64,000 nucleotides of DNA from a virus (lineage: Duplodnaviria > Heunggongvirae > Uroviricota > Caudoviricetes), in IMG/VR virus record IMGVR_UViG_3300028797_000096, positions 77,860 to 141,859 of that record, one strand, 5' to 3'. The notes beneath the pieces are model-generated. The model saw only the letters and a list, made by a program, of their open reading frames with translations, was not told the DNA's origin and made no database searches. Position numbers and translations under genes: made by a program. How positions within the stretch are numbered: the first letter of the stretch is position 1; the number at the start of each line of letters is the position of its first letter. Positions 3,464-62,365 of this stretch are shown piece after piece.

Positions 3464-3474
3464 AGATAATAGAA

Positions 3475-3514
3475 GGACTACCACTTTTTATCTATTTTAG
3501 TGGTAGTCTTTTTC
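3475..3514 (+). terminator. rho-independent terminator (first of tandem pair)
   Basis: GGACTACCACT...AGTGGTAGTC then TTTTT. Confidence 0.7.
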
Positions 3515-3539
3515 TATTATAATTGTAGTAGAAAATATG

Positions 3540-3578
3540 ACCAAGTTATTACTCATCCTGATAACTTGGTTTTGTTTT
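3540..3578 (+). terminator. rho-independent terminator (second of tandem pair)
   Basis: ACCAAGTTAT...ATAACTTGGT then TTTGTTTT. Confidence 0.6.
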
Positions 3579-3659
3579 CTAGTTAGAAGCAAACATCCTG
3601 AACATGATGTTAAACTGTTCTTTGTCTAACTACATAATACTAACTAAAGGAGGTCAATT

Positions 3660-4013
3660 ATGTCAAAGACAAAAACAAACCGTGGTGTTAGAGCCACATT
3701 AGGACTGTCAGATGAAGACATTAGCCGTTTGGTTGATGCTGATACAGCAGTCAAAGAAGCAAAACTGAAACTCGATGCATTGAAGCAAGAGTTAAGAGTA
3801 GATGATTTGTCATCTGGTTCTTATGTTGCTGAAGGCATTGGTGCAGTCATCAAAAACACTTCAATTCGAGGCACTGTCGACTATAAAAAGATGTTGTTAG
3901 AACATCCAGAAATTGATGTCGAACAGTATACCGAATACAAAGAAGTAAGTTCTTTGATCATTAGAAATATGCGTGTCAAGCCATCTGGTTTGTTATCACG
4001 TATTGTTAAATAA
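3660..4013 (+). CDS. hypothetical protein
   Basis: 117-aa ORF, SD aaaggagg. Confidence 0.55.
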   Translation: MSKTKTNRGVRATLGLSDEDISRLVDADTAVKEAKLKLDALKQELRVDDLSSGSYVAEGIGAVIKNTSIRGTVDYKKMLLEHPEIDVEQYTEYKEVSSLIIRNMRVKPSGLLSRIVK

Positions 4014-4036
4014 CTCGTAAAGCAAGAGGTGTAATT

Positions 4037-5083
4037 ATGTTAACCCTTAAAGAATGGTATGATAAACTTACACCTGTCGCTCAAAAGTGGGTCAAAAATC
4101 ATTGTAATGAATGGTTTGATGAATCAACACCAGACTATTACAAAGCAGACCTAATGGAAGAAGTCTCAGGTAATATTGTATCTGAGACTTCGCATCCTTT
4201 CATGTATGATGAAATCCGTGGTTCGGGTTGCAACATAAGTGAAGGAATTATCAATAGATACTGTAAAATATTACAATTAATTAATAAGACTCATCCGGAA
4301 ATCATTTCGGATAAGGATTATGATACACTTGTAATGCCCGGTATTTGTAGATCCGATATAGGTTATCTTGACGACCTTTGGCGATATGGAAGAACCCTTG
4401 AACAGAAAAAGCAATTGTTTTTACAGAAAGAATTGCAACAATCATCTAGTCTTTATTTAAAGGATTATTTGTTTACTGTAAGTGATTATAGTAAATTAGA
4501 TATAAACTTGATAAAGAAAGATACACTGGATCAAGGTATAATAGATATCATAGGATACGATAATGCTAAAGCATGGGCTATTGATCATCCGAAACGATTG
4601 GTTGATGGCTTAAGTGATTGCGAAGAATCGGAATTGTTTGATGAGTTATTCTTTGGTGACTCTGACGAAGATAATATCAAAGGTTGGAGTTCTGCCGTTA
4701 AGAGTAGAGTCTTATATGATCGTTATCATAATATGACTAACTTATCACGATTCAATGATTTCTTATATCGTATGGTTGCAGTAGATCATCATTATTTAAG
4801 ACACTTGGGTGATTATTTGGCTAATTATCCTGCGTTGGGTAATATGATTGCAACGGCTAAGAAACCAGAAAGCGAATTAGATGGTACTGAATCTGTAGCA
4901 AATCGTTTCAGATATAGTCCAGAGATTCGTAAGTTGGGTAAGATAGCAAATGCTTGTATTCGTAAGACTATAAGTAAGACTAATCATGGATCATTACATG
5001 AACATGGATCACTTGTTAAGTTATATAACTATAGTTATAAAGATATATACGATGCAATGTATCCAGATGAGATTGTATTATAA
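4037..5083 (+). CDS. hypothetical protein
   Basis: 348-aa ORF, SD agaggtg; no recognisable motif. Confidence 0.6.
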   Translation: MLTLKEWYDKLTPVAQKWVKNHCNEWFDESTPDYYKADLMEEVSGNIVSETSHPFMYDEIRGSGCNISEGIINRYCKILQLINKTHPEIISDKDYDTLVMPGICRSDIGYLDDLWRYGRTLEQKKQLFLQKELQQSSSLYLKDYLFTVSDYSKLDINLIKKDTLDQGIIDIIGYDNAKAWAIDHPKRLVDGLSDCEESELFDELFFGDSDEDNIKGWSSAVKSRVLYDRYHNMTNLSRFNDFLYRMVAVDHHYLRHLGDYLANYPALGNMIATAKKPESELDGTESVANRFRYSPEIRKLGKIANACIRKTISKTNHGSLHEHGSLVKLYNYSYKDIYDAMYPDEIVL

Positions 5084-5197
5084 GATCTTTGATGAAACAA
5101 GAACCGAAGCATATATACTTACGACCGAAAAAATTTAATTTCAGTGGTAGTATATATGCTTTATAATATTAATAGACAATAACACAAGGAGTAAAAA

Positions 5198-6439
5198 ATG
5201 TCTATTTCCGAAAACATGAAGGGCAAAATGTTAATGCCCGAATTTACCATTGACACTTTAGAACAAGAAAATGGTAAACACATTCCAGGTATCAAGCGTA
5301 TGTTTGATATCGCGTTAGCACTTAAAGACTCTGTTATGATTTGGGCAGGTCCAGGTGTTGGTAAATCCCAAGGTGTCTTACAGTGGAATCAAGAAAAGGT
5401 TGAAGAATATAATGCTCGTATTGCTGCGGGTGAAAAAGTTAAACCTTGGAATCCACAAGTATGTGACATTCGTTTGTCCATGAAAGAACCTGTAGATATG
5501 ATGGGTGTGCCTATTCCAAGTAAAAATGAGAAAGGTGAAACAGTCACTGTCTGGGCTATTCCAAGTATCTGGCCAAAAGATGATGGTGAGTTTTCAGGTG
5601 GAACAATCTTCTTAGACGAAATGAACCAAGGTCAAGCAGCAATTCTTAATGCTGCATTCCAGTTGGTACAAGATCGTGCATTAGGTGATTATAAAGTACC
5701 TAAAGGTTATATCATTATAGGTGCTTCGAATCCATCTGCGTTTAATGGAACAGTGACAGAGTTTAGTATTCCTTTGAGTAATCGTTTCAGTCACTTCAAT
5801 ATTAAAGTAGACTTTGATTCTTGGTTAAACTATCGTATGAATAATGGTGGAAACTTAGACGTCATGACATTCTTGAAGACACAAGACCAATCATTGTTGT
5901 TTGATCGTCAAGGTATGGAAGCCAAAGTTGGTAGTAGTTTAGCAGAAACAATGTATACAGATATTGTTGTCACTCCTCGTTCTTGGGAAGTTGTAGAAAA
6001 ATTGTTGAACTTACCAGAAGGAACTAAAGATACAGGTGGCTTTAGTATCGATGAAAAGAAATACTATGCAACTGGTCGTTTAGGTTTGGGTGTTGCTAAC
6101 AGATTGTTTACATTCATTAAAGATAAAAACAAATATCAAGATTGTATGGAAATCTTGAAAGATGGTAAACCATTCCGTGATGAATCAGGTGATCAATTCT
6201 GGGCAACACAAATGGCTTGTGTTAATGCTATCATCAATCAATCAGATGATAAAACTTGTCGTGATTATGTATTAAACTTTATTAATGCAACAAGACAATT
6301 AAAGTCTGACGCATATAAAGTTATTAATACGACAACTTTAGTCAGATGCAAACGATTGAAAGGTGCATTAAAAGTCTTCAATCCTTTGGCAGATGCTGGT
6401 GATTTGTTGGGTCTTGCAGCAACAGCAGTAAAAGCCTAA
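5198..6439 (+). CDS. MoxR-like AAA+ ATPase
   Basis: Walker A GPGVGKS, Walker B IFLDEMNQ, about 410 aa, directly upstream of a VWA-domain gene (classic MoxR/VWA pairing). Confidence 0.7.
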   Translation: MSISENMKGKMLMPEFTIDTLEQENGKHIPGIKRMFDIALALKDSVMIWAGPGVGKSQGVLQWNQEKVEEYNARIAAGEKVKPWNPQVCDIRLSMKEPVDMMGVPIPSKNEKGETVTVWAIPSIWPKDDGEFSGGTIFLDEMNQGQAAILNAAFQLVQDRALGDYKVPKGYIIIGASNPSAFNGTVTEFSIPLSNRFSHFNIKVDFDSWLNYRMNNGGNLDVMTFLKTQDQSLLFDRQGMEAKVGSSLAETMYTDIVVTPRSWEVVEKLLNLPEGTKDTGGFSIDEKKYYATGRLGLGVANRLFTFIKDKNKYQDCMEILKDGKPFRDESGDQFWATQMACVNAIINQSDDKTCRDYVLNFINATRQLKSDAYKVINTTTLVRCKRLKGALKVFNPLADAGDLLGLAATAVKA

Positions 6440-6494
6440 GTAAATAATCTAGGGAAGTCATTAAGATTTCCCTAGTAAAATCAAGGAGTTAGTT

Positions 6495-6902
6495 ATGTCA
6501 TACATAATTAAAGAAGTTAAACCAGATCATTTCTTAGAGATCGATCGAGTAATTCAAGGCTTAGACATTGTGACTGTAGTTGAACCAATTTACAGTCATC
6601 ATGCAGCAACTAAGTTTGATAGTATCGATGAATGTAAAAGTATCTTAGAGCAGATCAAACAAGAAGGCAATTATCATATAGATGAATGTGTTTTCTTAGA
6701 TCCTGATGAAATTGATGCCGAAATTCAACGTAAGAAGGAAGAAGAAGAAAAACGATTGCAAGAATTTGGTCAGGCTAAGATGCAAGAAGTAATCGATAAA
6801 TTGAAGAAAGCCGGTAAGACAGATGAAGAAATATCAGAAGTCTTAGACCAAGGTATTCGTATCGATAAAGAAGAATATGAACGAGTAATCAAAGGAGAAT
6901 AA
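6495..6902 (+). CDS. acidic coiled-coil protein
   Basis: 135 aa, Glu/Lys-rich heptad-like C-terminal half; sits between the MoxR and VWA genes. Confidence 0.5.
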   Translation: MSYIIKEVKPDHFLEIDRVIQGLDIVTVVEPIYSHHAATKFDSIDECKSILEQIKQEGNYHIDECVFLDPDEIDAEIQRKKEEEEKRLQEFGQAKMQEVIDKLKKAGKTDEEISEVLDQGIRIDKEEYERVIKGE

Positions 6903-6903
6903 G

Positions 6904-8301
6904 ATGGCTACTATAGATGTTAATAAGATCGTAGAAAATGCTATGATTAATTTAAGTCTAGACTTTCCAATCTATACGAATTTAATTACACGCATTGGTT
7001 ATCGAGTGACTCATGAAGGTACTAAAAGAGCAATAGCCTATACAAATGGAACTAGTATTACTATTAATGCTGATGAAGTAGAACGTTGGAACTTAGATCC
7101 AATGGTCGAATTCGAAGGTAAAATGGTTAACAGAACCATTACACAGAAAGAAATGCAGTTCTTGTTATGTCATGAATTATTGCATTTACTTGGGTTAACA
7201 CATGAGCGTATGAAGAATGTAAAACTTTATGTTGCAGATATAGCAGCTAATGATGAAGTCTTACGTAAATTTGAGATCTGGAATCAAGCAACAGATTATG
7301 AAATCAATAGTTTGTTGTGGAATAATGAAACTACAGATCCTGAATTTGGTGATAAGAAAAGACATCCTGTTGGTAATATGCCAGCAGTTGGTTGCTATAA
7401 AGATGAATATAAAGATATGACAGCAGAAGAAATTTACGCTAAATTAATCGAAAAAGAAAAGCGTGAAAATAATGGTATGCTGTTAAAACCTCAGAATCCA
7501 ATGGTAATACCAGGCGATGGTGATGATGATGACGAAAGTGATAACGGTAAATCCTTAGCAGTAAAAGGTATTGGTGGAACAGCATTAGATATGCACATGC
7601 CAATAGAAAGTGAAGATGCTAAGAATGAAATGTTATCTAAAATGTCAGAAGTATTTGGTAGTAAGGGTAATGGATTAGGTGAATCTGCGATTGATCGTAT
7701 GGTTAATAGAGTATATAAACCAGTACCATTCAATTGGAGAAAAGCATTAACTAAATACATTAGATCTTATATCAAATCAAATTATACTTGGAACAAACCA
7801 AGTAGAGCAGGTATTGCGAATAATTTGATCTTACCAAGTGCTGGTACTACACCAAGTCTGCACGTAGGTGTTGCAATTGATACTTCTGGATCTATTAGTG
7901 ATAAAGAAATCAATGCAATGATGGATCATGTCTTTACTATCTTACAGCAATTCAAGTCCTTCGAAGTTGATTTGTGGGCTTGCGGTAGTAAAGTATATGA
8001 AGAGTCACTTATCAAAATCACTAACCAGAATAAAAAGGATTTGGAGAAATTCAATCCAATATCTGATGGTGGTAATGATATGAGAAAGAACTTTAAGTTT
8101 GTCAGAGATCATTATAAAGGTAAAGATAAAATTGATCTATTGATAATCTTAAGTGACTTCATTGATCCTCTAGATGGTGATGACGAAACAACAAGTATTT
8201 GTCCTTGTGTATTCTTGTGTATCGATCATAAAGACTTTAAGAAACCATCCAAGATCAAGGGTGAAGTGTATCCGTTTTCAGTAGAAAATTGGAAAGACTA
8301 A
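6904..8301 (+). CDS. VWA-domain protein with N-terminal HExxH (DUF2201-like)
   Basis: MIDAS motif VGVAIDTSGSIS (DxSxS); N-terminal LLCHELLHLLG HExxH motif; architecture typical of VWA partners of MoxR ATPases. Confidence 0.7.
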   Translation: MATIDVNKIVENAMINLSLDFPIYTNLITRIGYRVTHEGTKRAIAYTNGTSITINADEVERWNLDPMVEFEGKMVNRTITQKEMQFLLCHELLHLLGLTHERMKNVKLYVADIAANDEVLRKFEIWNQATDYEINSLLWNNETTDPEFGDKKRHPVGNMPAVGCYKDEYKDMTAEEIYAKLIEKEKRENNGMLLKPQNPMVIPGDGDDDDESDNGKSLAVKGIGGTALDMHMPIESEDAKNEMLSKMSEVFGSKGNGLGESAIDRMVNRVYKPVPFNWRKALTKYIRSYIKSNYTWNKPSRAGIANNLILPSAGTTPSLHVGVAIDTSGSISDKEINAMMDHVFTILQQFKSFEVDLWACGSKVYEESLIKITNQNKKDLEKFNPISDGGNDMRKNFKFVRDHYKGKDKIDLLIILSDFIDPLDGDDETTSICPCVFLCIDHKDFKKPSKIKGEVYPFSVENWKD

Positions 8302-8355
8302 GTAAGACAAGGGGTTATGTAAAAATAACCCCTTCGTTAATTGAAGGAGAACCAG

Positions 8356-8739
8356 ATGACTAACAAGCAGATATTAAAGAAATTAGAATCTACCGAAGGA
8401 AGAGAAAATGCTAAAGCAGTAAAAGAACTCTTACCACAGTGGAACTTAAAAGAATCCTTTCCAGATGATCATAATAGCATGATGCGTTATATAAGAATGC
8501 ATCAATGGGATTATGAAGACTTTGGATTTGGTATGGAAATGATATTAACAAGAGTGTTTCAAAGATATATCTTGCGTTCATATTTTGATATGAAAGAATT
8601 TAGAAGTAATCATAGAAACGTCCTAACCTCTACTTGTATTGCATTAAGTAAGATGGAAGGATTGCTTATGAATACTCAAGATGAAAAAGCATATTGTTTG
8701 TATCATTATTCGTTAAATAAGTATTACGGACATAATTAA
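8356..8739 (+). CDS. hypothetical protein
   Basis: ORF track start 8341 is a TTG inside the SD (ttgaaggagaaccagATG); ATG at 8356 preferred. Confidence 0.5.
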   Translation: MTNKQILKKLESTEGRENAKAVKELLPQWNLKESFPDDHNSMMRYIRMHQWDYEDFGFGMEMILTRVFQRYILRSYFDMKEFRSNHRNVLTSTCIALSKMEGLLMNTQDEKAYCLYHYSLNKYYGHN

Positions 8740-8750
8740 AGGAGTATAAA

Positions 8751-9497
8751 ATGAAAATTACTCGTATTAATATGAAAGGCTATATAGATCATATAGATTA
8801 TGCTGATCTTACTAAAGGAGTTTTTACAGCAAAAAAGACTCGTGTATCAGATATATATGGTTCTTATAAAGCAGATGAATGTAATGAAGTAGAAATAGAT
8901 AGTAAAGATGTAAAAGATTTGGCAAAAAAATATAGTCATGTTATTAGTGTTAGTGATATAGTAGATTACTTGCAAAAGAAAAAGTTATTACCAGCAGGTA
9001 GAGTATTTATACCAAATAACGAATGGAAGTATGACTTTATTAATGATAAAGGTGTATATAATATCTATTATGATGATACAATTCCATCTAGTAAAAAAAG
9101 ACAATCAACTGGTGTTTTACATATCTTTCACTATAAAGACTTTGTTAAATTACCTGCAACTAAGAAAGAACAAGATATGCTAGATCATTTAGCAAATCGC
9201 GCAAGAATGAAATCTTTGAATAATTTAGTATTAAAAGATAATTTCTTGAAGATACTGAATGATAATAAGTATAACGTAGAATTATATAAAGATGGTGAAA
9301 CAGTATACTTTAAGAATAAAGCAGGATGGAATAGATTAGTTCATGATGCTATTACTTACTACTTAAACAATACAATCTTAAAAGAAATAAAATGTGAAAT
9401 TGTCATGCCATTATATACTAGTAGTCATGCATGTAAATGGAGTGATTCATTCTGTAATATAGGCGATTTAAAGATGATTGTAGGTGATAAAAAGTAA
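8751..9497 (+). CDS. paralog family A protein
   Basis: 248 aa; shares a TKKEQ...L.K.N and C-terminal A(I/L).YYLN motif with the 13367 and 14293 proteins. Confidence 0.6.
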   Translation: MKITRINMKGYIDHIDYADLTKGVFTAKKTRVSDIYGSYKADECNEVEIDSKDVKDLAKKYSHVISVSDIVDYLQKKKLLPAGRVFIPNNEWKYDFINDKGVYNIYYDDTIPSSKKRQSTGVLHIFHYKDFVKLPATKKEQDMLDHLANRARMKSLNNLVLKDNFLKILNDNKYNVELYKDGETVYFKNKAGWNRLVHDAITYYLNNTILKEIKCEIVMPLYTSSHACKWSDSFCNIGDLKMIVGDKK

Positions 9498-9637: not shown

Positions 9638-9672
9638 GACCGAATATTTTAAATGTATTCGGTCTTTTTTTT
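9638..9672 (+). terminator. rho-independent terminator
   Basis: GACCGAATA-ttttaaatg-TATTCGGTC then TTTTTTTT. Confidence 0.75.
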
Positions 9673-9703
9673 ATGCTAATATAAATTTATAACAAAAGGA
9701 TAT

Positions 9704-35239: not shown

Positions 35240-37441
35240 ATGAAGATCTTGTTAGTTTTAAGAGGTATTCCAGGTTCTGGTAAATCTACTTGGATTAAAG
35301 AAAGAGATTTAGAAGCATACGTTTTAAGTACCGATGCTATTCGTTTATTATACTCTTCTCCAGAACAAACTATAAAAGGTAAATATATTGTTTCTAATAA
35401 ACATGATAAACATGTTTGGGCTTTCTTTAAAGAAAGATTAGAAGATCGTATGAAGAATGGTGATTTTACTATATTAGATGCTACACATACCAAAGAATCT
35501 TATTTAAAAGATTATAAAAAATTGTGTAAAGAATATAATTATCGTATGATTATTGTAGATTTTTCTTCTGTTGATTTAGATACTTGTAAAGAAAGAAATT
35601 TAATGCGGGAAAGTTATAAACAAGTACCAAATGAAGTATTAGATCGTATGTATAATCAAATAAAAGTACCATTACAAAATAAATATGAAATTTATGATTA
35701 TAATGAATTTCCTAATTTAGATAATTTTGTATATAAAATAGATGGTAATAAATGGAAAGAAGTAGTAATATTTGGTGATATACATAATTGTTATGATCCA
35801 ATAAGAAAATACTTTGAAGCATCTCCAGAATCTGATCAAAAATTATACATCTTTATTGGTGATTATTTTGATCGTGGTATTCAAGCTAAAGAAGTATTAC
35901 AGTTTTGTTTAGACCACTGTGAAAAAGAAAACTTTGTATTTTTACAAGGTAATCATGAAATATGGGCTAAGAATTATGTAAGAGATGGTGAAGCTGCTAA
36001 AATGACACCAGATTTCAAAGATTCTTTAGTACAGTTTGGTGAATTAAAAGATCAATTAAGTAAGTTTACTAGAAGATTAAAAGTAGCAGTAAATGTTAGT
36101 TTTTACTGTCAGGGTATTTATCATAGATTTTCTATTACTCATGGTGGATTAAGCTTTCCTTTAGATTATCGTACTTCTGCAATACAATGTATTAAAGGAG
36201 TAGGTGATTATGATGATTTAGATGAAGTAGAAAAAGCTTTTGGTAGTATTAATGAAAAAATGACTATGCAAGTATTAAACTACAAATGCTATAATGTACA
36301 TGGTCATCGTAATGTAACTAATAATCCAATTATAAGTGCAGACGGCTATAGTATTAACTTAGAAGGTAAAGTTGAATTTGGTGGTAATTTAAGAATAGTT
36401 GAATTATCTTATACAGACAAAATGAATATATTACCAATAGAAATACCAAATACAATTTATAACAAAGATATACAAATTCCTTCTAGTAGACATGATAATC
36501 CAATTATTCAACAATTGGATAGTAGTAGTTTAATACATAAAAAAGATTTGGGTGATGGTATAGTTTCTTATAACTTTAGTAGAGAAGCTTTTTATAGCCA
36601 AAAATGGAATAAATTAACTACTACAGCGAGAGGCTTATTTGTTGATACTAAGACAAATCAAGTAGTTGCTAGATCTTATCCTAAATTTTTTGAAGCAGAA
36701 CAGCATCCATCTACACAATGGAGAAATTTAGAAAAGACATTAGTATTTCCAGTAACTGCTTATTTGAAAGAAAATGGCTTTTTAGGTATTGTATCTGTAT
36801 ATAATGATCAATTATTTATTGCATCTAAATCTACAAATCAAGGCGAATATAAAGAAAACTTTGAGCGTATATTAAAAACACATACAAATATTGATAAATT
36901 AAAAGAATATTTAAAAGCTAATAATTGTTCCGCTATATTTGAATGTGTAGATCCACATAATGATCCGCATATTATTGAATATGTCAATGAAAAAGTTGTA
37001 TTATTAGATATAGTACAGAATGATTTTACAGATACATTTAAATCTTATGATGATGTATGGGAATTAGCTAAACAAATAGGATGTAAACCAAAAGAAATGT
37101 GTAAAGTATTTAATACCTTTGCTGAATTAAAATCTTTTATTGAAGCATTTGATAAAGATTTTCATGAAGAAATAGAAGGTTTTGTATTTGTAGATCAGAA
37201 TAATTTTATGATTAAATATAAAACACCTTTCTATAAATTCTGGAAAGACATGCGTAGAATGAAAGAATATATTAATAAAGGTGATAATGATAAATATTTT
37301 GCCGCTAAAAATGTAAAGTCTGAACAAACAAATTTGATGAATGATTTGTTTAGTTTTATGACAGGTATTAAAAATGGTGGTATTGATTTAGATACATTAT
37401 CCATTATTGATATTAAAAACAGTTATTATAATAAGGATTAA
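35240..37441 (+). CDS. Pnkp-like polynucleotide kinase / calcineurin-type phosphoesterase with C-terminal ligase-like domain
   Basis: P-loop LRGIPGSGKST; metallophosphoesterase motifs GDIHN, GDYFDRG, GNHE; C-terminal third has ligase-like elements (ARGLFVD, EGFVFV, KYKTPFYK) reminiscent of bacterial Pnkp RNA-repair enzymes. Confidence 0.65.
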   Translation: MKILLVLRGIPGSGKSTWIKERDLEAYVLSTDAIRLLYSSPEQTIKGKYIVSNKHDKHVWAFFKERLEDRMKNGDFTILDATHTKESYLKDYKKLCKEYNYRMIIVDFSSVDLDTCKERNLMRESYKQVPNEVLDRMYNQIKVPLQNKYEIYDYNEFPNLDNFVYKIDGNKWKEVVIFGDIHNCYDPIRKYFEASPESDQKLYIFIGDYFDRGIQAKEVLQFCLDHCEKENFVFLQGNHEIWAKNYVRDGEAAKMTPDFKDSLVQFGELKDQLSKFTRRLKVAVNVSFYCQGIYHRFSITHGGLSFPLDYRTSAIQCIKGVGDYDDLDEVEKAFGSINEKMTMQVLNYKCYNVHGHRNVTNNPIISADGYSINLEGKVEFGGNLRIVELSYTDKMNILPIEIPNTIYNKDIQIPSSRHDNPIIQQLDSSSLIHKKDLGDGIVSYNFSREAFYSQKWNKLTTTARGLFVDTKTNQVVARSYPKFFEAEQHPSTQWRNLEKTLVFPVTAYLKENGFLGIVSVYNDQLFIASKSTNQGEYKENFERILKTHTNIDKLKEYLKANNCSAIFECVDPHNDPHIIEYVNEKVVLLDIVQNDFTDTFKSYDDVWELAKQIGCKPKEMCKVFNTFAELKSFIEAFDKDFHEEIEGFVFVDQNNFMIKYKTPFYKFWKDMRRMKEYINKGDNDKYFAAKNVKSEQTNLMNDLFSFMTGIKNGGIDLDTLSIIDIKNSYYNKD

Positions 37442-47594: not shown

Positions 47595-47669
47595 TGGCGT
47601 GTAGCTCAACGGCAGAGCTTTCGGCTGTTAACCGAATGGTTGTCCGTTCGAATCGGACCACGCCAGCCA
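47595..47669 (+). tRNA. tRNA-Asn(GUU)
   Basis: TGGCGTG/CACGCCA acceptor, anticodon loop CTGTTAA, GTCCG-TTCGAAT-CGGAC T-arm, encoded CCA. Confidence 0.85.
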
Positions 47670-47676
47670 TGTTTCT

Positions 47677-47751
47677 GGCCCCATCGTCTAATGGTTAGGA
47701 CACCGCCCTTTCAAGGCGAGAATCCCGGTTCAAATCCGAGTGGGGCTGCCA
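47677..47751 (+). tRNA. tRNA-Glu(UUC)
   Basis: GGCCCCA acceptor, anticodon loop CTTTCAA, GGTTCAAATCC T-loop, CCA. Confidence 0.75.
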
Positions 47752-47757
47752 ATTTAT

Positions 47758-47831
47758 TGGAGCATAGTTTAATGGTAGAACCCGGGATTTTGGTTCCCGT
47801 TATCTTGGTCCGAATCCAGGTGCTCCAACCA
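47758..47831 (+). tRNA. tRNA-Gln(UUG)
   Basis: TGGAGCA/TGCTCCA acceptor, anticodon stem CGGGA/TCCCG, loop TTTTGGT, CCA. Confidence 0.8.
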
Positions 47832-48024
47832 TTAAGTTTTACAGAAGTGTCTACTATTAGTTACGTATGAGGCTATAAAGGTAGGAATACGTATCAAAGA
47901 CAGCCTACTAATAAGCACGAAATAATTTTGGTAAGACTTATTAGAGGAAAGTTTTTCTTTTAGCATTGGCTAGAAGTATTACCTGAAAGTTAATATGAAA
48001 AAGTTATTAGCTTTCTTGGTCTAT

Positions 48025-48101
48025 GCTTGTTTAGCTCAGTTGGCTAGAGCATCTGCTTTACACGCAGAGGGTCAGGAGTTCGAGTCTCTTAACAAGCACC
48101 A
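48025..48101 (+). tRNA. tRNA-Val(UAC)
   Basis: GCTTGTT/AACAAGC acceptor, anticodon loop TTTACAC, GGAGTTCGAGTCTC T-arm, CCA. Confidence 0.85.
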
Positions 48102-48124
48102 AAAAATTTAAAAAAAGGAAATTA

Positions 48125-48616
48125 ATGAAAGCAATTTGTCCAAAATGTGGAATAGAATTTGAAAATGATACAAATCGAAAATTTTGTTCAAGAAAATGTG
48201 TAAATAGTCGTAATATTTCACAAGAAACAAAAAAGAAAATTTCAAATAAAATGAAAGCCAGATATCAAGAACCTGAATACAGAAAACAAATTTTGAATTT
48301 AAATAGAAAATTAGGTAATCATTTACATGAAGAAAAATTAAAAAGATTTGTAAAAGCAAAAAATGGGCAAATTTTAGATATTACATATGGGGAATTAGAA
48401 GAATACCAAAAAACTCATTTGGTATGTGAAATTTGTGGTAAAACTGAAATTGCTTCACATAACATAATAAAAAAGATATATCGAAATTATGTCGTGATCA
48501 TGATCATAAAACTTCTAAATTTCGTGGATTATTATGTAGTAATTGTAACAGAAAGTTAGGTTGGTTTGAAAATTTTAAAGATGAAATTTTCAAATATTTG
48601 AATAAAAAGCACCAGT
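48125..48616 (+). pseudogene. NUMOD3 + Endonuclease-VII/HNH-type homing endonuclease with frameshift
   Basis: N-terminal NUMOD3-like SQETKKKISNKMK; frame 2 reads ...LVCEICGKTEIASHNIIKK then must shift to frame 1 (DISKLCRDHDHKTSKFRGLLCSNCNRKLGWF) at the A6 run 48468-48473 to restore the CxxC...DHDH...RGLLC..CN motif. Confidence 0.6.
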
Positions 48617-48682
48617 AGTTTAATAGTAGAATGTAACCTTGCCAAGGTTAAGACCTCGGAGCATAACCGGGTTGGTGCACCA
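48609..48682 (+). tRNA. tRNA-Gly(GCC)-like, atypical arms
   Basis: GCACCAG/TTGGTGC acceptor, perfect anticodon stem TAACC/GGTTA with loop TTGCCAA, CCA; D-arm weak and T-loop AGCATAA non-canonical; overlaps the stop of the HNH pseudogene. Confidence 0.45.
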
Positions 48683-48684
48683 AT

Positions 48685-48774
48685 GGACAGATGGTAGAGT
48701 GGCTGAATACACTGGTCTTGAAAACCGGCATACCAGCAATGGTATCGGGGGTTCGAATCCCTCTCTGTCCGCCA
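48685..48774 (+). tRNA. tRNA-Ser(UGA)
   Basis: GGACAGA/TCTGTCC acceptor, loop CTTGAAA, long variable arm, GGGGTTCGAATCCC T-arm, CCA. Confidence 0.85.
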
Positions 48775-48782
48775 TTTTTTAA

Positions 48783-48872
48783 AGGAGTGGTGGTAGAGCG
48801 GTTTAATACAGCTGATTACTAATCAGCCGAAGCAGTAATGTTTCCGGGGGTTCAAATCCCTCCCACTCCGCC
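48783..48872 (+). tRNA. class II tRNA (Ser-like) with anticodon loop TTACTAA (anticodon ACU?)
   Basis: GGAGTGG/CCACTCC acceptor, GAGCGGTTTAA D-loop as in tRNA-Ser, perfect anticodon stem GCTGA/TCAGC, long variable arm, GGGGTTCAAATCCC, CCA; A at position 34 is unusual. Confidence 0.6.
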
Positions 48873-48888
48873 ATTACTTTATTAATTT

Positions 48889-48923
48889 TGGCCCTGTGGC
48901 GGAATTGGTAGACGCTGCAGACT
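48889..48923 (+). tRNA. tRNA-Leu(UAA) exon 1 (intron-interrupted)
   Basis: GGCCCTG acceptor, GGCGGAATTGGTAGACGC D-arm, GCAGA anticodon stem, loop CUU| ; intron inserted after U34 as in cyanobacterial/plastid tRNA-Leu(UAA). Confidence 0.65.
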
Positions 48924-49628
48924 TAGACGAAAATGAGTGTATCATAATTTATTGAAAAAGTAGTTCTATATCATAAGGAGTTAATCCTATGAAAAATAGA
49001 ATTACAGATCAAGAAATGATTGATATTATCATTAAGTCTCAAACAATGGCTTTAGCTGCTAAAAGATGTGGTATGGCATATACAACATTTATTAGGCATG
49101 CTAAAAGATTGGGTATTTATAAACCTAATCAAGGCGGAAAAGGTACTGAGAAAAAAAGATCTGCTAAAATATCTATAGAAGAAATTTTAGCAGGAAAGTA
49201 TCCTCAGTATCAAACATATAAATTAAAAACAAGATTAATAGATGAAGGATATAAAGAAGATAAGTGTGAGAAATGTGGGTGGTGTGAAAAATTAAAAAAT
49301 AGCAAATATACTCCATGCGAATTACATCATATCGATGGAAATCCTGAAAATCATTTATTATCTAATTTAATTATATTGTGTCCAAATTGCCATTCCTTAA
49401 CTAAATCTTATAGGTTTAGAAGAGGTAAGACTAATGAGCAACAAGGTAGGAAACTTCTCGATTGAATGCTGTCAAATTCGGTGAAAGGTTTTATAATCCT
49501 AACGCCGAGCGAAGCCTAGAAATAGGAACGTGTAGAGACTTAACGGCAGCCACCTAAGTAGAAATATATGGTGAAGACAAAGTCCAGACTACAAACAAGA
49601 AATTGGTAGTGAAAGCTATAGTAGTAAG
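48924..49628 (+). ncRNA. group I intron (Azoarcus / cyanobacterial tRNA-Leu type) carrying an HNH ORF
   Basis: 705 nt; guide GAGT pairs with exon end ACUU (U-G at splice site); core blocks TGTCAAATTCGGTGAAA and GTGTAGAGACTTAACGGCAGCCACCTAAG match the Azoarcus pre-tRNA-Ile intron recalled from memory; terminal G at 49628. Confidence 0.65.
48989..49465 (+). CDS. intron-encoded HNH homing endonuclease
   Basis: CEKCGWCEKL...CELHHIDGNPENHLLSNLIILCPNCH (HNH with two Cys pairs); lies wholly inside the tRNA-Leu group I intron; SD aaggag. Confidence 0.7.
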   Translation: MKNRITDQEMIDIIIKSQTMALAAKRCGMAYTTFIRHAKRLGIYKPNQGGKGTEKKRSAKISIEEILAGKYPQYQTYKLKTRLIDEGYKEDKCEKCGWCEKLKNSKYTPCELHHIDGNPENHLLSNLIILCPNCHSLTKSYRFRRGKTNEQQGRKLLD

Positions 49629-49682
49629 AAAATCTGTTGACAGTTAAATGTCGTACCGGTTCGATTCCGGTCAGGGCCACCA
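49629..49682 (+). tRNA. tRNA-Leu(UAA) exon 2
   Basis: AAAA-TCTGT, variable arm TGACAGTTAAATGTCGT, ACCGG-TTCGATT-CCGGT, CAGGGCC-A-CCA pairing exactly with exon 1 acceptor. Confidence 0.65.
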
Positions 49683-49694
49683 AAAAATTTATAT

Positions 49695-49770
49695 GGGGTT
49701 GTAGCTCAGTTGGTAGAGCATCTGCTTTGCAAGCAGAGAGTCGTCAGTTCGAGTCTGATCAGCTCCACCA
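49695..49770 (+). tRNA. tRNA-Ala(UGC)
   Basis: G3-U70 wobble identity pair, anticodon loop TTTGCAA, CCA. Confidence 0.8.
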
Positions 49771-49771
49771 T

Positions 49772-49848
49772 AGGAAGGTAGTTCAGATGGTTAGAATGTC
49801 GCTCTGATACAGCGAAGGTCGTGAGTTCGAATCTCACTCTTCCTACCA
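49772..49848 (+). tRNA. tRNA-Ile(GAU)
   Basis: AGGAAGG acceptor, anticodon loop CTGATAC, GTGAGTTCGAATCTCAC, CCA. Confidence 0.8.
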
Positions 49849-49856
49849 TAGTTTAT

Positions 49857-49932
49857 GCCTGCTTAGTTCAGTTGGTAGAACGACTGATTTGTAATCAGTA
49901 AGTCGGCGGTTCAAGTCCGTCAGCAGGCACCA
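49857..49932 (+). tRNA. tRNA-Thr(UGU)
   Basis: GCCTGCT/AGCAGGC acceptor, anticodon loop TTTGTAA, CCA. Confidence 0.8.
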
Positions 49933-50321
49933 GAGATTAGTAGGTAATCGTAGTATAGAGATAAAAGCCTTGAATCGTATATCCAATATATTTGAATGGA
50001 CGCCGTAGTCAGTAAAGGGACCTACTAAGTAAGAGATTTTGATAATAAAAAATAGGTTGAGCACATAGTGTTAACTCCAGGTTAGTCATGACTGCTGAGC
50101 ACAGACCGATCATGAAGTAACATACTTGAAACGATAGAGTAGGGTTACAGTTATCAAAATAGTGTTGGGGTAGAGTCTATATAATATATTAAGCATGTTT
50201 ATGCAATCCTTGGATGTTTATATTTGATTGACTCTACAACAATTTTAACCGGATATTAGTGAATGATAATTATTTATTATGCCTAATATCTATAAGTCTA
50301 AGAAAAACATAAGGAAAAAAT

Positions 50322-50747
50322 ATGTTTATTAATACAAATGGAGGTTTGATTGATACTCCAGAACGCTTAATCAATCATTTTGCATCTCTTCCTGAATATA
50401 CTGATATTCAGAAGTCTTTAATTGAAGATCATTGTGCTTGCTGTGCTAAAAGCTTTGCTAGAGGTGTTGGTAAAGTTACAAAAGAAGAGGTATGGTTTGG
50501 TGCTTTAGATGTGTTTCCATATATATCTAATAAGCATGAATTTACCAATGAAGATTTTTTAATTAAAAGATGGGGTATTGATTGGCAAAAAGCTAGGTTA
50601 AAAGAAAGACCAGATGTAGATATTGATAAATCTACTAAAAGTCAATTAGGAAAGATTTTTTACGATGCCTTATTGAGAGATAAAAACGCTATTTATAAAT
50701 GGCGTAGAGTAGAAGGCAAATATTTTGAATATTGTCGTATAAAATAG
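50322..50747 (+). CDS. hypothetical protein
   Basis: 141-aa ORF within tRNA island; CACCAK motif. Confidence 0.5.
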   Translation: MFINTNGGLIDTPERLINHFASLPEYTDIQKSLIEDHCACCAKSFARGVGKVTKEEVWFGALDVFPYISNKHEFTNEDFLIKRWGIDWQKARLKERPDVDIDKSTKSQLGKIFYDALLRDKNAIYKWRRVEGKYFEYCRIK

Positions 50748-50835
50748 TTCAAATATAAAAGGGTGGGACAATTGCTATGATGTTTTAGTAACATTATCAA
50801 TCCCACCCAATGAGTTTAAAATAAGAGGTAAAATC

Positions 50836-51108
50836 ATGTCATTTAACCGTAAACAAACACCAATTGCAACAAACGATCATTGGAATTTATATTTATTAGG
50901 ATTTTGTAAAGAAAATGTTCGTAAAGCTGTGTTAATTAATTATCTTACTAATGATGAATTATCTGCAAAAGTTAATGTAGGTGCAGATATTACTGGTAAA
51001 AATACACAATATACTGTAATTGAAGCGGTTGATGAAAAAACAAATCATTTAGTTGATTTTACTAAAACATTTGTTGTTCCGGGTAAATATGTTAAAACTC
51101 GTGGATAA
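50836..51108 (+). CDS. hypothetical protein
   Basis: 90-aa ORF, SD aagaggtaaaatcATG. Confidence 0.5.
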   Translation: MSFNRKQTPIATNDHWNLYLLGFCKENVRKAVLINYLTNDELSAKVNVGADITGKNTQYTVIEAVDEKTNHLVDFTKTFVVPGKYVKTRG

Positions 51109-51377
51109 TAAATATTAAAAGTTTTGGTCTTATAGGTCAAAGACTAAAATGACGGGGACAGCCTGAAGATAGGAGGCTGCTGCTTGGATCGGCAATATAG
51201 GGTCTCACAAAATACATAAGATTGACCTCACAGTGTTTTCACGCTGATAATCTTATGGTGAGTGTATGCAAAACCTGATTGAGTTGGTTCAAATCCAGAC
51301 AGTTAGGTAGGCAAGGTGTTGGAGCATGAACACACTTAGATGGGTTGCTCCTTATAGTTTTATAGGAAGGATATGAT

Positions 51378-51611
51378 ATGAAAGATATATGTACTGAAAT
51401 TATAAAAGAGTTAGAAAAAATGGGATATACTGCATTTCAAATAACTCCAGAGATGTCTATTCATGAAGATTTAGGTTTAGATTCATTAGATACTATTGAA
51501 TTGGTTGCTAAATTAGAAGAAAAATTTGATATTCGTATAAAAGATGATGATTTAGTAGATGTAAAAACGATTCAAGATATTGTAGATATTGCTAATAAAT
51601 ATTTAAAATGA
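51378..51611 (+). CDS. acyl carrier protein
   Basis: 77 aa acidic; phosphopantetheine attachment motif DLGLDSLDTIELVAKLEEKFDIRI. Confidence 0.8.
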   Translation: MKDICTEIIKELEKMGYTAFQITPEMSIHEDLGLDSLDTIELVAKLEEKFDIRIKDDDLVDVKTIQDIVDIANKYLK

Positions 51612-51734
51612 GAGTTTAACCGATAAAAGAAATAGTTCTATATAATATGAAAAAAATAAATGTATGTTTTTGGCCATGCTTTCCTAGTACCTTTGGAGGT
51701 AAGTGTTAATCATACTTTTATAGAAGATTAGATA

Positions 51735-51764
51735 CCTCCAGAAATAAAAAGCTGGAGGTTTTTT
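51735..51764 (+). terminator. rho-independent terminator after the ACP gene
   Basis: CCTCCAG-aaataaaaag-CTGGAGG then TTTTTT. Confidence 0.8.
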
Positions 51765-51853
51765 AATTGAGTTTGGTAGTTGTAGTATAATCAATACACT
51801 TCCCAATGGGGTAGAAGAGATGTAAGTAAAATCTTATCGATTACCACAGTTTA

Positions 51854-51931
51854 TCGGAATGTAGGATAATCTGGTTATTCCGCCTGTTTTGGGTACAGGA
51901 GACTCCCGGTTCAAATCCGGGCATTCCGACC
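51854..51931 (+). tRNA. tRNA-Pro(UGG)
   Basis: CGGAATG/CATTCCG acceptor, anticodon loop TTTGGGT, CCCGGTTCAAATCCGGG, CCA. Confidence 0.8.
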
Positions 51932-51937
51932 AGTTTT

Positions 51938-52014
51938 TGGCTGGGTAGCTCAGTTGGTAGAGCAAGGGACTGAAAATCCCTGTGTCAGTGGTTCGATCCC
52001 GCTCTCAGCCACCA
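51938..52014 (+). tRNA. tRNA-Phe(GAA)
   Basis: GCTCAGTTGGTAGAGC D-arm, anticodon loop CTGAAAA, CCA. Confidence 0.85.
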
Positions 52015-52019
52015 ATCTT

Positions 52020-52093
52020 GGCCAGGTGGCAGAATGATTATGCAGAGGACTGCAAATCCTTGTACATCGGTTTGATTCCGGTCCTGGCCTCCA
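52020..52093 (+). tRNA. tRNA-Cys(GCA)
   Basis: GGCCAGG/CCTGGCC acceptor, anticodon loop CTGCAAA, discriminator U, CCA. Confidence 0.75.
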
Positions 52094-52098
52094 AATCT

Positions 52099-52172
52099 AG
52101 GTCATTAGTTTAGTGATAAAACAAAGATCTCCAAAATCTTAGTCGGTGGTTTGATTCCATCATGACCTGCCA
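52099..52172 (+). tRNA. tRNA-Trp(CCA)
   Basis: AGGTCAT/ATGACCT acceptor, anticodon loop CTCCAAA, CCA. Confidence 0.75.
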
Positions 52173-52303
52173 TTATTTTGGAAATTTAGTTAAAAAAAGT
52201 ATTTACAAATAAAAATAAATGTATATAATATATAATATCTACTTGCTGCCATACTAGATTTCCCAGTTACCATCGTAGTAAGTACAGCAAGTAGGTAGTT
52301 TAT

Positions 52304-52380
<77 letters not shown>

Positions 52381-57810: not shown

Positions 57811-57811
57811 G

Positions 57812-60241: not shown

Positions 60242-60304
60242 AGAAAATTAAACAAAATAAAACAAGTTCTAACTATAGAATAATAAAGTGAAGGAAAGTA
60301 GAAA

Positions 60305-62365
60305 ATGCCAAATACATATACAGATACCGCAGTTGCAAGTCTTGTTATAAACAAGATGACTCAAGAACAGTATGATGCTTTAGCTGAAAAATCAGATACA
60401 GAGTTATATTTGATTGATGGTGGTGAAACTGCAGTTTATGCAGAACAAATGATAGAAATGCCTAATGCTGAAGCTGCTAAATTGGGTAATATTATACAAT
60501 ATGCAGGTTTAACTGATCAAGATTACACAAATGGTTATTTCTATAAATGTAATATTACAAGTGGTTCACCGGCATCTGTTACTATAACACAAACGATAGG
60601 TAGTAGTTTAAGTGATTTAGCGGTTAATATTACTACTTTTGAAAACTATGTGCACCCTTCTGGTGATGAAACAATTGATTTTGAATATGTAGTAATACCT
60701 GGTACAATGAATTGTGTAGATACAGCAGGTGAAATAGGAATTGCTTGTAATAATGTAGATGAATTTATTGCAGGACTTGCTACGGCGTGTGGTTATACAG
60801 TAGATCTTACAGTAGAAAATCTTAATGATTCTAATTCTATTTTTACCTATTATCCTAATAATGCATCAGATGAACGTTTGACTTGGAATATGGGTAATGG
60901 TAGTTGGCTTCCAGACACATTGTTAGCTTATTTTAGTTTTGCTGAAACACCTTTAAATGATATTAGTTGGACTACTTCTCCAGTTACACAAGGTTCCTAT
61001 TATTGGAGTGATGGTTTTGATGAAGTAAATCTACTTAATTATGGTATTGTATATTCAGGTACTCCAGTAGGTGGTGATGAAATTGAAGTAGATTATGTTG
61101 CTTCAACAGCTGTGTATAGTTGGGTACAGCTTAATGTACAACCGGGCGTAACAGTTGTAGATAATTATGGTTCAACTTCTACTACTTCTGCCTTGTCTGC
61201 AAATATGGGTCATGATTTAAATGAACGTTTAACTTCAGTTGAAGGTCGTGGTCGTTATTTGTCAACTTGGGATTGTACAACTGGTTTAGCCGGAACAAAT
61301 CCACCGGAATCTCCATATACATATAAAGCAGGTGATTATTTTATTGTAAGTACTGTTGGTGTTACAAATTATAAACCAAGTGGTAGTAGTTATACAACTG
61401 GTGTAGCTTCCTCTACTGTTGAAACAGGTACAGTTAAAATAAATGATACATATCAATTTGATGGAACAAATTGGACATTATTAAATAATACAGCTGGTGA
61501 TGTATTACCTTCACAATCTGGAAATAGCGGTAAGTTCTTAACAACTGATGGGACAACAACAAGTTGGGGTGAAGCATTAGTTAATAAAAGATTAGCTTCT
61601 CAAACTGGTGATTTAGTAATTGGTGATAATGCTTCCGCAAATGGTGCGCAAGAAGGTGCTACAGCTGTTGGTCAATACGCACAAAGCGGTTCAAAAGGTA
61701 CATCGGTTGGATATGCTGCATCAGCAAGTTCTCGTGGTACAGCTATTGGTAATAATGCACAAACAACTGATACTTATGCTACAGCTATTGGTATGAGTGC
61801 TAAAGCTACTGCAACTAATGCAATCCAATTAGGTGTTGGTGCAAACGGTGCAGATGTAACTAATGCTAATGCAAATACATTTAAAGTCGGTAATGCAAAC
61901 GGTAATTTTGAATTGATGAGTGCAGACGGTACAATTCCAGAGGCTCGTTTAGCAAGTATGAGTGGTGTTAGTGCAGGTCAAGGCTTAGTATTAGATAATA
62001 ATTTAAATGCAGTATGGGGAAACATTGATCCATTACCATCACAATCTGGTCATGCTGGTAAAGTATTAACTACAAATGGTGTATATACATCTTGGACAGA
62101 ATTAATTAAGTCTCCAACTACTGCTCCTGTATTATTAGGCGGTACTGGTGCAGGTGCTTGGGATAGTAGTACAAATACTCAAACTGTAACAGTACAAGGA
62201 GTAACCTCTACTAATGCTATCTTTATTAGTCCAGCACCCGCAAGTTCATTGGATTATGCAACAGCCGGGGTGATTTGTACAAATCAAAATTTAAATAGTT
62301 TAACATTTAGTTGCAATACAATACCTGTAAATGATCTTACTGTTAATGTAGTAATTTTAGGATAA
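60305..62365 (+). CDS. tail fibre protein with YadA/Hep_Hag-like alanine-glycine repeats
   Basis: 686 aa; LPSQSGNSGKFLTTDGTTTSW and PLPSQSGHAGKVLTTNGVYTSW motifs; ATAVGQYAQSGSKGTSVGYAASASSRGTAIGNNAQTTDTYATAIGMSAKATATNAIQLG head-like repeats. Confidence 0.65.
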   Translation: MPNTYTDTAVASLVINKMTQEQYDALAEKSDTELYLIDGGETAVYAEQMIEMPNAEAAKLGNIIQYAGLTDQDYTNGYFYKCNITSGSPASVTITQTIGSSLSDLAVNITTFENYVHPSGDETIDFEYVVIPGTMNCVDTAGEIGIACNNVDEFIAGLATACGYTVDLTVENLNDSNSIFTYYPNNASDERLTWNMGNGSWLPDTLLAYFSFAETPLNDISWTTSPVTQGSYYWSDGFDEVNLLNYGIVYSGTPVGGDEIEVDYVASTAVYSWVQLNVQPGVTVVDNYGSTSTTSALSANMGHDLNERLTSVEGRGRYLSTWDCTTGLAGTNPPESPYTYKAGDYFIVSTVGVTNYKPSGSSYTTGVASSTVETGTVKINDTYQFDGTNWTLLNNTAGDVLPSQSGNSGKFLTTDGTTTSWGEALVNKRLASQTGDLVIGDNASANGAQEGATAVGQYAQSGSKGTSVGYAASASSRGTAIGNNAQTTDTYATAIGMSAKATATNAIQLGVGANGADVTNANANTFKVGNANGNFELMSADGTIPEARLASMSGVSAGQGLVLDNNLNAVWGNIDPLPSQSGHAGKVLTTNGVYTSWTELIKSPTTAPVLLGGTGAGAWDSSTNTQTVTVQGVTSTNAIFISPAPASSLDYATAGVICTNQNLNSLTFSCNTIPVNDLTVNVVILG

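Follow-up and report, generated by a model that had tools for sequence, protein, structure and literature searches.

A zincin-like VWA protein gene paired with a MoxR-like AAA+ ATPase gene in an uncultured giant phage, compared with gp24/gp25 of N4-like phages

Gene pairs that set a MoxR-type AAA+ ATPase beside a protein with a von Willebrand factor A (VWA) domain are known from several viruses. The 14 core genes of N4-like phages (Schitoviridae) include gp24, an AAA ATPase, and gp25, a vWFA protein, both of them functionally uncharacterized middle genes. In 2007, phage 0305phi8-36 was noted to have a MoxR pair. Iyer et al. 2021 (Viruses 13:63) reported that "group 2.2" jumbo phages carry a MoxR AAA+ chaperone together with a vWA cochaperone bearing an N-terminal metallopeptidase, and proposed a role in virion assembly with peptidolytic processing, by analogy with Acidianus two-tailed virus (ATV), an archaeal virus whose MoxR–vWA system is reported as required for tail development or assembly. 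Here, we analyze a pair of this kind in a 64,000-nt stretch of DNA (the window, meaning the whole stretch analyzed; positions 77,860 to 141,859 of IMG/VR record IMGVR_UViG_3300028797_000096) from an uncultured phage of ~230 kb that is known from metagenomes alone. Three consecutive plus-strand open reading frames (ORFs) encode a MoxR-like (AAA_5/Midasin-class) AAA+ ATPase (5198–6439), a 135-aa acidic protein (6495–6902), and a protein joining a zincin-like domain to a VWA domain (6904–8301). We propose, at a probability of roughly 0.5, that the first and third genes encode the two components of a giant-phage chaperone and protease module that is orthologous to N4-like gp24/gp25 and serves a core developmental role.

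Comparison with the N4-like pair reveals a shared architecture at low sequence identity. The two pairs fall in the same PHROGs families (phrog_1297 and phrog_1314), keep the same gene order and strand, and share the DUF2201_N + DUF2201 arrangement with its HExxH and metal-ion-dependent adhesion site (MIDAS) motifs, yet their proteins are just 23–25% identical. In tblastn searches, the window ATPase matched gp24 of St11Ph5 (E = 1e-14, 89% coverage) and the VWA protein matched a LUZ7 protein described as "N4 gp25-like" (E = 9e-6, 85% coverage). At 413 and 465 aa, the window proteins exceed their N4-like counterparts (350 and 391 aa) in length. The window ATPase has an additional helical domain at its C-terminus and the window VWA protein a variable acidic/Gly-rich linker, and the gene for the 135-aa acidic protein separates the two here. 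The genomes differ as well, the window phage measuring ~230 kb and an N4-like podovirus ~70 kb.

The comparison extends to jumbo-phage and archaeal-virus systems. Proteins of the 121Q type, whose genes gp563 and gp564 are adjacent, are 28–29% identical to the window VWA protein over 62% of its length, and the window phage belongs to a different lineage from the "group 2.2" jumbo phages, showing no nucleotide match and a capsid-like protein unrelated to that group's listed relatives. Neither the acidic protein nor the 348-aa gene upstream of the ATPase appears in the description by Iyer et al. 2021. The ATV system, which we liken to the window pair by description, stands alone among viral precedents in having a proposed role, and its VWA protein lacks a peptidase domain. 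The pair is a divergent member of an already described, functionally uncharacterized phage module, to which the clade-specific acidic third gene is the only new element. The initial annotation of this DNA, which had set the pair apart as foreign to the standard T4 gene set, put its novelty too high, since the pair is core in N4-like phages and its occurrence in jumbo phages is explicit in Iyer et al. 2021. At the molecular level that annotation was largely right: All three ORFs and the motifs quoted for them (GPGVGKS, hhhhDE, HExxH, and DTSGSIS) are present where it placed them. Its span of 5198–8334 holds for the ORFs and overshoots at the right-hand end, where 8334 falls 33 nt beyond the stop codon, so that the span includes most of a hairpin at 8306–8338.

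The 413-aa, 46-kDa product of the first gene carries the motifs expected of an AAA+ ATPase. Its Walker A loop, A50-GPGVGKS-57 (5345–5368, plus strand), fits the pattern [AG]x4GK[ST], and Walker B reads TIFLDE at residues 136–141 (5603–5620, plus strand). Across 50 homologs at 22–76% identity, the invariant functional residues comprise G53, K56, D140, E141, N178, R196, and R261; G103, G296, and the start Met complete the set of invariant columns. Going by the standard arrangement of AAA+ proteins, we infer that N178 (in GASN) is sensor 1, R196 (in SNRF) the arginine finger, and R261 (in TPRSW) sensor 2. The ORF can be taken as beyond chance because its many homologs share these invariant motifs: More than 200 are close, and an exhaustive profile search recovered 7,519 representatives of the family. 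The protein matches phrog_1297 ("ATPase") at E = 5.6e-59, and tblastn found relatives in 718 phage records, many of them annotated MoxR. Among these is gp566 of Bacillus phage G, which matches the window ATPase at E = 2e-25 and itself scores 35.9 bits against Pfam AAA_3 (cut-off 27).

Assignment to a class within the AAA+ superfamily rests on the broad family profile, as direct and close-clade searches gave nothing: Neither the single sequence nor a close-clade profile found a match in the PDB. Pfam recognized AAA_5 in 43 of the 50 diverse homologs, AAA_3 in 18, and bpMoxR in 17, the bpMoxR matches being mostly weaker than those to AAA_5. Compared with solved structures, the profile built from all 50 matched Midasin best (1.4e-29 summed; 8e-12 for the best single AAA domain), followed by McrB (5e-8), the Cytophaga MoxR structure 2r44 (1.7e-5), CbbQ (3.9e-5), RavA (5.4e-5), and NorQ (1.5e-4). 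The Midasin/Rea1 match reflects a common AAA_5 signature around the helix-2 insert; as Midasin is one giant polypeptide of six fused AAA domains with no peptidase, the relation is one of class and not of orthology. Homology and motifs together identify the 413-aa protein securely as an AAA+ ATPase of the MoxR/Midasin class, in which the positions for Walker A and B, sensors 1 and 2, and the arginine finger are all intact.

Two features mark this ATPase as highly conserved. It is 54–81% identical across the clade loci compared, and in five close homologs (P0033, P0034, P0045, P0048, and P0241; 567–688 aa) an intein splits the Walker A loop itself, in the form GPG|intein|C-GKS. These inteins match Pfam Intein_splicing or Hint, and one also matches HNH_3; the window copy has none. 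Inteins in a P-loop are a hallmark of highly conserved, essential genes.

The 465-aa product of the third gene combines two domains. Pfam places DUF2201_N (PF13203, "putative metallopeptidase domain") at residues 81–312 with 54.5 bits against a cut-off of 23.2 and, marginally, DUF2201 (PF09967, "VWA-like domain") at residues 322–403 with 28.4 bits against 26.4; precomputed domain matches agree on this pair of domains for almost all homologs, of which more than 230 are close. The CoxE-type VWA family, VWA_CoxE, which had been expected alongside DUF2201_N, is not among the matches; weaker ones are to generic VWA and, below threshold and centered on the HExxH helix, to the zincin families YbeY, M10, and M43. 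The protein belongs to phrog_1314 (E = 1.1e-56).

The HExxH and MIDAS motifs are both conserved. We aligned 19 and 30 VWA proteins (the 30 being clade members) and, for the N-terminal domain, 13 sequences that take in N4-like, phiTE, and distant metagenomic relatives at 24–55% identity. The putative zinc-binding and catalytic motif HELLH (residues 90–94; 7171–7185, plus strand) occurs once, and its H90, E91, and H94 are invariant, as the initial annotation would require of a genuine HExxH site; so are N127, A129, D131, I134, and N135 of a WNxAxDxxIN motif, together with T47 and G49. In the VWA domain, the MIDAS motif DxSxS reads DTSGS at residues 326–330 (7879–7893, plus strand), with D326, S328, S330, and a separate D418 invariant. 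The MIDAS Thr position is occupied by Asn391 in the window protein and by Thr in the more distant P0219, P0234, P0238, phiTE, and St11Ph5. Fold and profile matches of the VWA domain include NorD, BchD, and the MIDAS domain of Midasin. Fold-search lists for the whole protein were filled by VWA matches, and none surfaced for the N-terminal domain. The acidic/Gly-rich linker between the two domains (approximately residues 185–235) is predicted with a local confidence score (pLDDT) below 50. Taken together, these matches identify the protein, by prediction, as a VWA domain with a MIDAS site fused to an N-terminal zincin-like HExxH domain, and we consider the molecular identity of the two partners—a MoxR-class ATPase and a zincin-like/VWA protein—highly probable.

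Existing labels for this family are inconsistent with its domain content. The family, phrog_1314, is widely labeled "HNH endonuclease" or "T4-gp25-like Zn-dependent hydrolase," with NC_070873.1 gp25 and NC_025447.1 gp564 among the GenBank records concerned. Pfam finds no HNH domain in the VWA/DUF2201 protein, and the first label therefore appears to be a mis-annotation that has propagated to many GenBank records. It may have arisen through a mix-up over "N4 gp25" or have been carried over from the HNH homing endonucleases whose genes adjoin this one in some phages.

The two genes travel together across widely separated phages. Every related locus that extends far enough shows a DUF2201 gene downstream of the ATPase gene and on its strand: 16 metagenomic and IMG/VR loci, over a range of ATPase identity from 81% down to 29%, and two distant loci (L024 and L025), giving 18 of 18 informative loci; 13 loci come from the IMG/VR viral collection. 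The same order is found in N4-like St11Ph5 (gp24/gp25) and in 121Q (gp563/gp564), and also in Pectobacterium phage phiTE, except that the two genes there flank an HNH_3 homing endonuclease. Encoded and inherited together, the two proteins appear to be a functional pair.

One relative carries the pair twice. On IMGVR_UViG_3300031992_000024, a 148-kb viral contig, two ATPase + VWA pairs lie 27 kb apart (loci L017 and L019, at about 99.6–112.7 kb and 126.6–139.8 kb), both without the acidic gene. Their ATPases are 53% identical and their VWA proteins 34% identical, a pattern in which each pair seems to have diverged as a unit. The contig may carry a genuine duplication whose copies differ in specificity, or it may be an assembly chimera.

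Among cellular systems, the pair most resembles RavA–ViaA, NorQ–NorD, CbbQ–CbbO, and BchI–BchD, in each of which an AAA+ ring ATPase of the same class stands beside a VWA/MIDAS partner, and profile or fold matches reach RavA, NorQ, CbbQ, NorD, and BchD. The similarity is remote, at E-values of 1e-4 to 1e-5 for which a family profile is needed. None of the cellular VWA partners carries an HExxH peptidase domain, and their targets are respiratory or biosynthetic enzymes; the window ATPase is without the characteristic C-terminal domains of RavA-, NorQ-, CbbQ-, and BchI-type ATPases; no AAA_lid match was seen in it. By analogy with RavA–ViaA, NorQ–NorD, CbbQ–CbbO, and Midasin, the ATPase would assemble into a hexameric ring, the VWA domain would dock on this ring, and the MIDAS site would grip an acidic residue of a client. 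ATP hydrolysis would then remodel the client, which would either be cut by the attached metallopeptidase or mature as a complex. We give this mechanism—ring, VWA docking, and client remodeling—about an even chance.

The same comparison raises the alternative that the pair serves as an enzyme activase or cofactor-insertion chaperone for a phage or host metalloenzyme, for example one of nucleotide metabolism, in the manner of CbbQ–CbbO, NorQ–NorD, CoxD–CoxE, or BchI–BchD; the HExxH motif would then bind metal or substrate without proteolysis. The best characterized MoxR–VWA pairs do act in this way, and NorQ, NorD, CbbQ, and BchD are among the structural and profile matches. Gene neighbors point in the same direction: dCTP deaminase and thymidylate synthase genes accompany the pair in N4-like phages and in 121Q, and NrdD lies near it in L025. 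These neighboring enzymes vary from phage to phage, however, and none stands beside the pair in the window. Moreover, the full HExxH, catalytic Glu included, stays invariant even among very divergent sequences, a better fit to catalysis than to a purely structural role, and we consider the activase explanation rather improbable.

A second alternative is that the pair is a host-takeover or counter-defense protease, cutting or dismantling a host defense or stress-response complex soon after infection. MoxR–vWA systems are common in prokaryotic conflict systems, the pair lies in a nonstructural region full of small uncharacterized genes, and expression of the N4 pair falls in the middle phase, ahead of the structural genes. 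Rates of evolution are also suggestive: Within the clade, VWA proteins (35–67% identical) and acidic proteins (20–49%) evolve much faster than the ATPase (54–81%), as an arms-race target-binding surface would. On the other side, counter-defense genes are usually patchy and dispensable, whereas this pair is core in a whole phage family and spans many unrelated phage groups and hosts, and P-loop inteins are typical of conserved, essential genes. The defense connection raised by the initial annotation found no backing in a PADLOC scan, which returned no match better than E = 0.003, all of them to unrelated models. We regard the counter-defense explanation as unlikely. A core developmental role is favored because the pair is core to a family, because it occurs across so many unrelated groups and hosts, and because the ATPase is so conserved within the clade and interrupted by P-loop inteins in several relatives; an accessory host-attack function is the less likely of the two.

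We also weighed whether the locus is a bacterial MoxR–vWA conflict (defense) system residing on a prophage or on a mis-binned bacterial contig. Some homologs are filed under metagenome-assembled genomes of Lachnospiraceae, Clostridia, and Bacilli, and the bpMoxR model, which belongs to ternary conflict systems, is matched by the 17 ATPase homologs noted above. Against this, the same proteins occur on metagenomic contigs of 190–260 kb with phage features (a capsid-like gene, 14–15 tRNAs, a polynucleotide kinase/phosphatase [Pnkp]–RNA ligase gene, and dense small ORFs on one strand), and the 13 IMG/VR loci come from a viral collection. Measured against the ternary MoxR–vWA conflict system of Kaur et al. 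2020, the module and its neighbors contain no VMAP, β-propeller, or effector domain. A bacterial origin is therefore very improbable.

Several observations weigh against the proposed chaperone and protease module with a core developmental role. Searched directly, the window ATPase itself gives nothing in Pfam at E < 0.1 and nothing in NCBIfam, so that the AAA_5/MoxR assignment made by the initial annotation stands through the homologs and the family profile and not through a direct match; its AlphaFold2 model is poor in the ATPase core, and a fold search on that model was uninformative. At the MIDAS Thr position, the window protein and most close relatives have Asn (Asn391). The N-terminal domain alone, searched as a profile against solved structures, found no significant relative, its nearest matches being botulinum light chain, minigluzincins, and BepA at E ~0.5 around the HExxH. 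To our knowledge, peptidase activity has never been shown for DUF2201_N. Literature searches that included genome-wide phage knock-down and transposon studies returned no experiment on any phage ortholog, on N4 gp24/gp25, or on DUF2201. Bacillus phage G may be an exception to the pairing, as the three proteins scanned downstream of its ATPase showed no DUF2201 domain. Finally, gene context gives no clear pointer to morphogenesis: The pair lies among small uncharacterized genes in the window, beside nucleotide-metabolism genes in N4-like phages, and near NrdD in L025. In favor of such a role, the 121Q pair adjoins virion structural genes. We accordingly hold the biological role—a core step of phage intracellular development, in the maturation or processing of a phage-encoded protein assembly—only tentatively.

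The gene between the pair encodes a protein of 135 aa (6495–6902, plus strand) that is acidic, as first described: It has an isoelectric point (pI) of 4.68, 26% Asp + Glu, and a net charge of −15, and its C-terminal half, in a protein that the initial annotation also called a coiled coil, is simply rich in charge (36 of 67 residues). Positional orthologs in 11 related loci (129–280 aa, pI 4.2–4.8, 20–49% identity) have in common the N-terminal motif YV[IV]K...[FI]DR.V...I.T.VEP....AT.F.S, ahead of a stretch dense in charged residues; the trio that the initial annotation suggested seeking in related phages is thus conserved within the phage's own clade. The gene is missing where the ATPase and VWA genes abut at 0–15 nt (L007, L017, L019, and L022), and in L016 no ORF was found in the 454-nt gap between them. 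Pfam, PHROGs, PADLOC, and the PDB gave nothing significant, and whatever the searches did return was either from the clade or compositional. When 5.8 billion proteins were searched with a profile, 47 clusters were recovered, all lacking a Pfam domain and an informative name, one of them being the gene that adjoins the ATPase in a mis-binned "Lachnospiraceae" genome. By these comparisons, the acidic protein represents a fast-evolving, clade-specific family without known relatives, apparently absent from sister lineages.

How the acidic protein relates to the pair admits more than one answer. It may be a clade-specific accessory—an adaptor, regulator, or client. Its position, orientation, and acidity (pI 4.2–4.8) are kept in 12 loci despite identity as low as 20%, and translational coupling is suggested because the VWA gene starts 1 nt past its stop codon. 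Since MIDAS sites bind carboxylate side chains, an acidic partner is also plausible for the VWA protein. Alternatively, this small gene is unrelated to the pair, coding perhaps for a DNA mimic of acidic character or another host-interfering protein, and was inserted by chance between two cotranscribed genes. Under that explanation, the abutting pairs of the sister lineages, the empty slot in N4-like phages and 121Q, and the homing endonuclease that fills the slot in phiTE would all be expected, as would a family without detectable relatives elsewhere. We take an unrelated insertion to be a serious contender, falling a little short of even odds.

A more elaborate possibility, which we consider doubtful, is a three-part machine. 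The acidic protein would be a dedicated MIDAS ligand (a pseudosubstrate, inhibitor, or adaptor) that gates the metallopeptidase, and the ATPase would release or deliver it at a set time of infection; with the 348-aa protein, the module would amount to a new regulated protease system of giant phages, possibly host-directed. If so, the two codiverged pairs on one related contig would mean two client specificities.

The module appears to sit within a longer transcription unit. Each of its three ORFs is preceded by an AAGGAG-type ribosome-binding site. A scan found intrinsic-terminator-like hairpins upstream, with a U-tract (3539–3581, plus strand; ΔG −22.1 kcal/mol, z = −6.9), and downstream, with a T8 tract (9638–9674, plus strand; z = −6.2); the upstream one is the second of a tandem pair whose first member (3474–3513) was read by eye. 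These two hairpins bracket seven plus-strand genes (3660–9497), the module included, which suggests a single transcription unit. Two further plus-strand hairpins lie inside it, both without a U-tract, and may be processing or stability elements: One, with an 11-bp stem, lies in the gap between the ATPase and acidic-protein genes (6449–6475; minimum free energy −16.3 kcal/mol, z = −4.6), and the other directly 3′ of the VWA gene (8306–8338; −17.1 kcal/mol, z = −3.6). A motif shared upstream of two genes, AGTGGTAGT, was considered as a promoter element and dropped, being unenriched (19 matches against 11.9 ± 3.2 expected).

Several neighbors within the unit are conserved with the module. The first gene encodes a 117-aa protein (3660–4013, plus strand) with orthologs at 33–46% identity upstream of the pair in 12 loci. 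Directly upstream of the ATPase lies a gene for a 348-aa protein (4037–5083, plus strand) that is conserved in the same clade; its syntenic orthologs, 25–36% identical and mostly full-length, are found in L008–L014, L020, and L021, with merely short partial matches in L015 and L016. It has no match in Pfam, PHROGs, NCBIfam, or PADLOC, and synteny alone leads us to infer that it is part of the module. Family searches with the conserved upstream proteins (117, 121, and 348 aa) and their orthologs likewise gave no match. Downstream of the VWA gene, a 127-aa basic protein (8356–8739, plus strand) has orthologs at 30–54% identity in the same position in 10 loci, which cover most clade members; for its start, ATG at 8356 with a GAAGGAG site is favored over TTG at 8341. 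The 248-aa protein that follows (8751–9497), assigned to no family, has two weak paralogs in the window, at 13367–14092 and 14293–15045 (25–30% identity, E = 1e-10 and 3e-7). In L007, of a sister lineage without the acidic gene, a 141-aa Sigma70_r4 protein (4357–4782 of that locus; E = 3.2e-9) stands just upstream of the ATPase; it was considered as an ortholog of the window's upstream genes and rejected, with no BLAST match to any of them at an E-value limit of 1e-4.

At the nucleotide level, the genome surrounding the module matches no deposited phage: A megablast search with the locus came up empty in 50,697 phage records. The capsid-like protein (phrog_138; 513 aa; 16716–18257) has its best relatives in Xanthomonas phage phiXF1 (34%), Pseudomonas phage QdP_Psa3, and phages of Listeria, Bacillus, Maribacter, and Rhizobium; the matches listed include no phage of the T4 type (Straboviridae), and the description of this phage as T4-like is not borne out. 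The pair, placed by the initial annotation in an early region, has N4 orthologs that are middle genes. The capsid-like gene is the lone minus-strand gene in an otherwise plus-strand region. The ~1.7 kb preceding it (15046–16715) is nearly free of ORFs; in this part of the window (15046–18257), the guanine + cytosine (GC) content rises to 0.356 and the GC skew turns negative. Many small uncharacterized genes fill the window, whose GC content ranges over 24–39%. The low GC content, strong Shine–Dalgarno sites, and the assigned bins hint at a Firmicutes host.

Other parts of the window carry features of their own. A tRNA cluster at 47595–52380 comprises 14 genes by ARAGORN, and a fifteenth, at 48609–48679, was found by Rfam and missed by ARAGORN. 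Upstream of the cluster, a 733-aa Pnkp–RNA ligase fusion of the tRNA-repair type is encoded at 35240–37441 (phrog_8238, E = 5.9e-175). Three consecutive large ORFs (858, 809, and 686 aa) occupy 55234–62365 with family matches that are marginal or none convincing; the 858-aa protein (55–58 kb) has no tblastn match in the 50,697 phage records.

Among conserved gene pairs in large virulent phages, that of the MoxR-like ATPase and VWA–metallopeptidase is one of the most widespread. The window leaves existing knowledge of this kind of system unchanged, and adds to it a divergent lineage, that of uncultured giant phages of ~230–260 kb. In tractable relatives, the residues equivalent to Glu91 (catalytic), Asp326 (MIDAS), and Lys56 (Walker) offer experimental handles. 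Three clues come with the new lineage: the extreme conservation of the ATPase together with its P-loop inteins, the clade-specific acidic protein, and a relative with two codiverged pairs. These clues argue that the pair is an important, specific machine.

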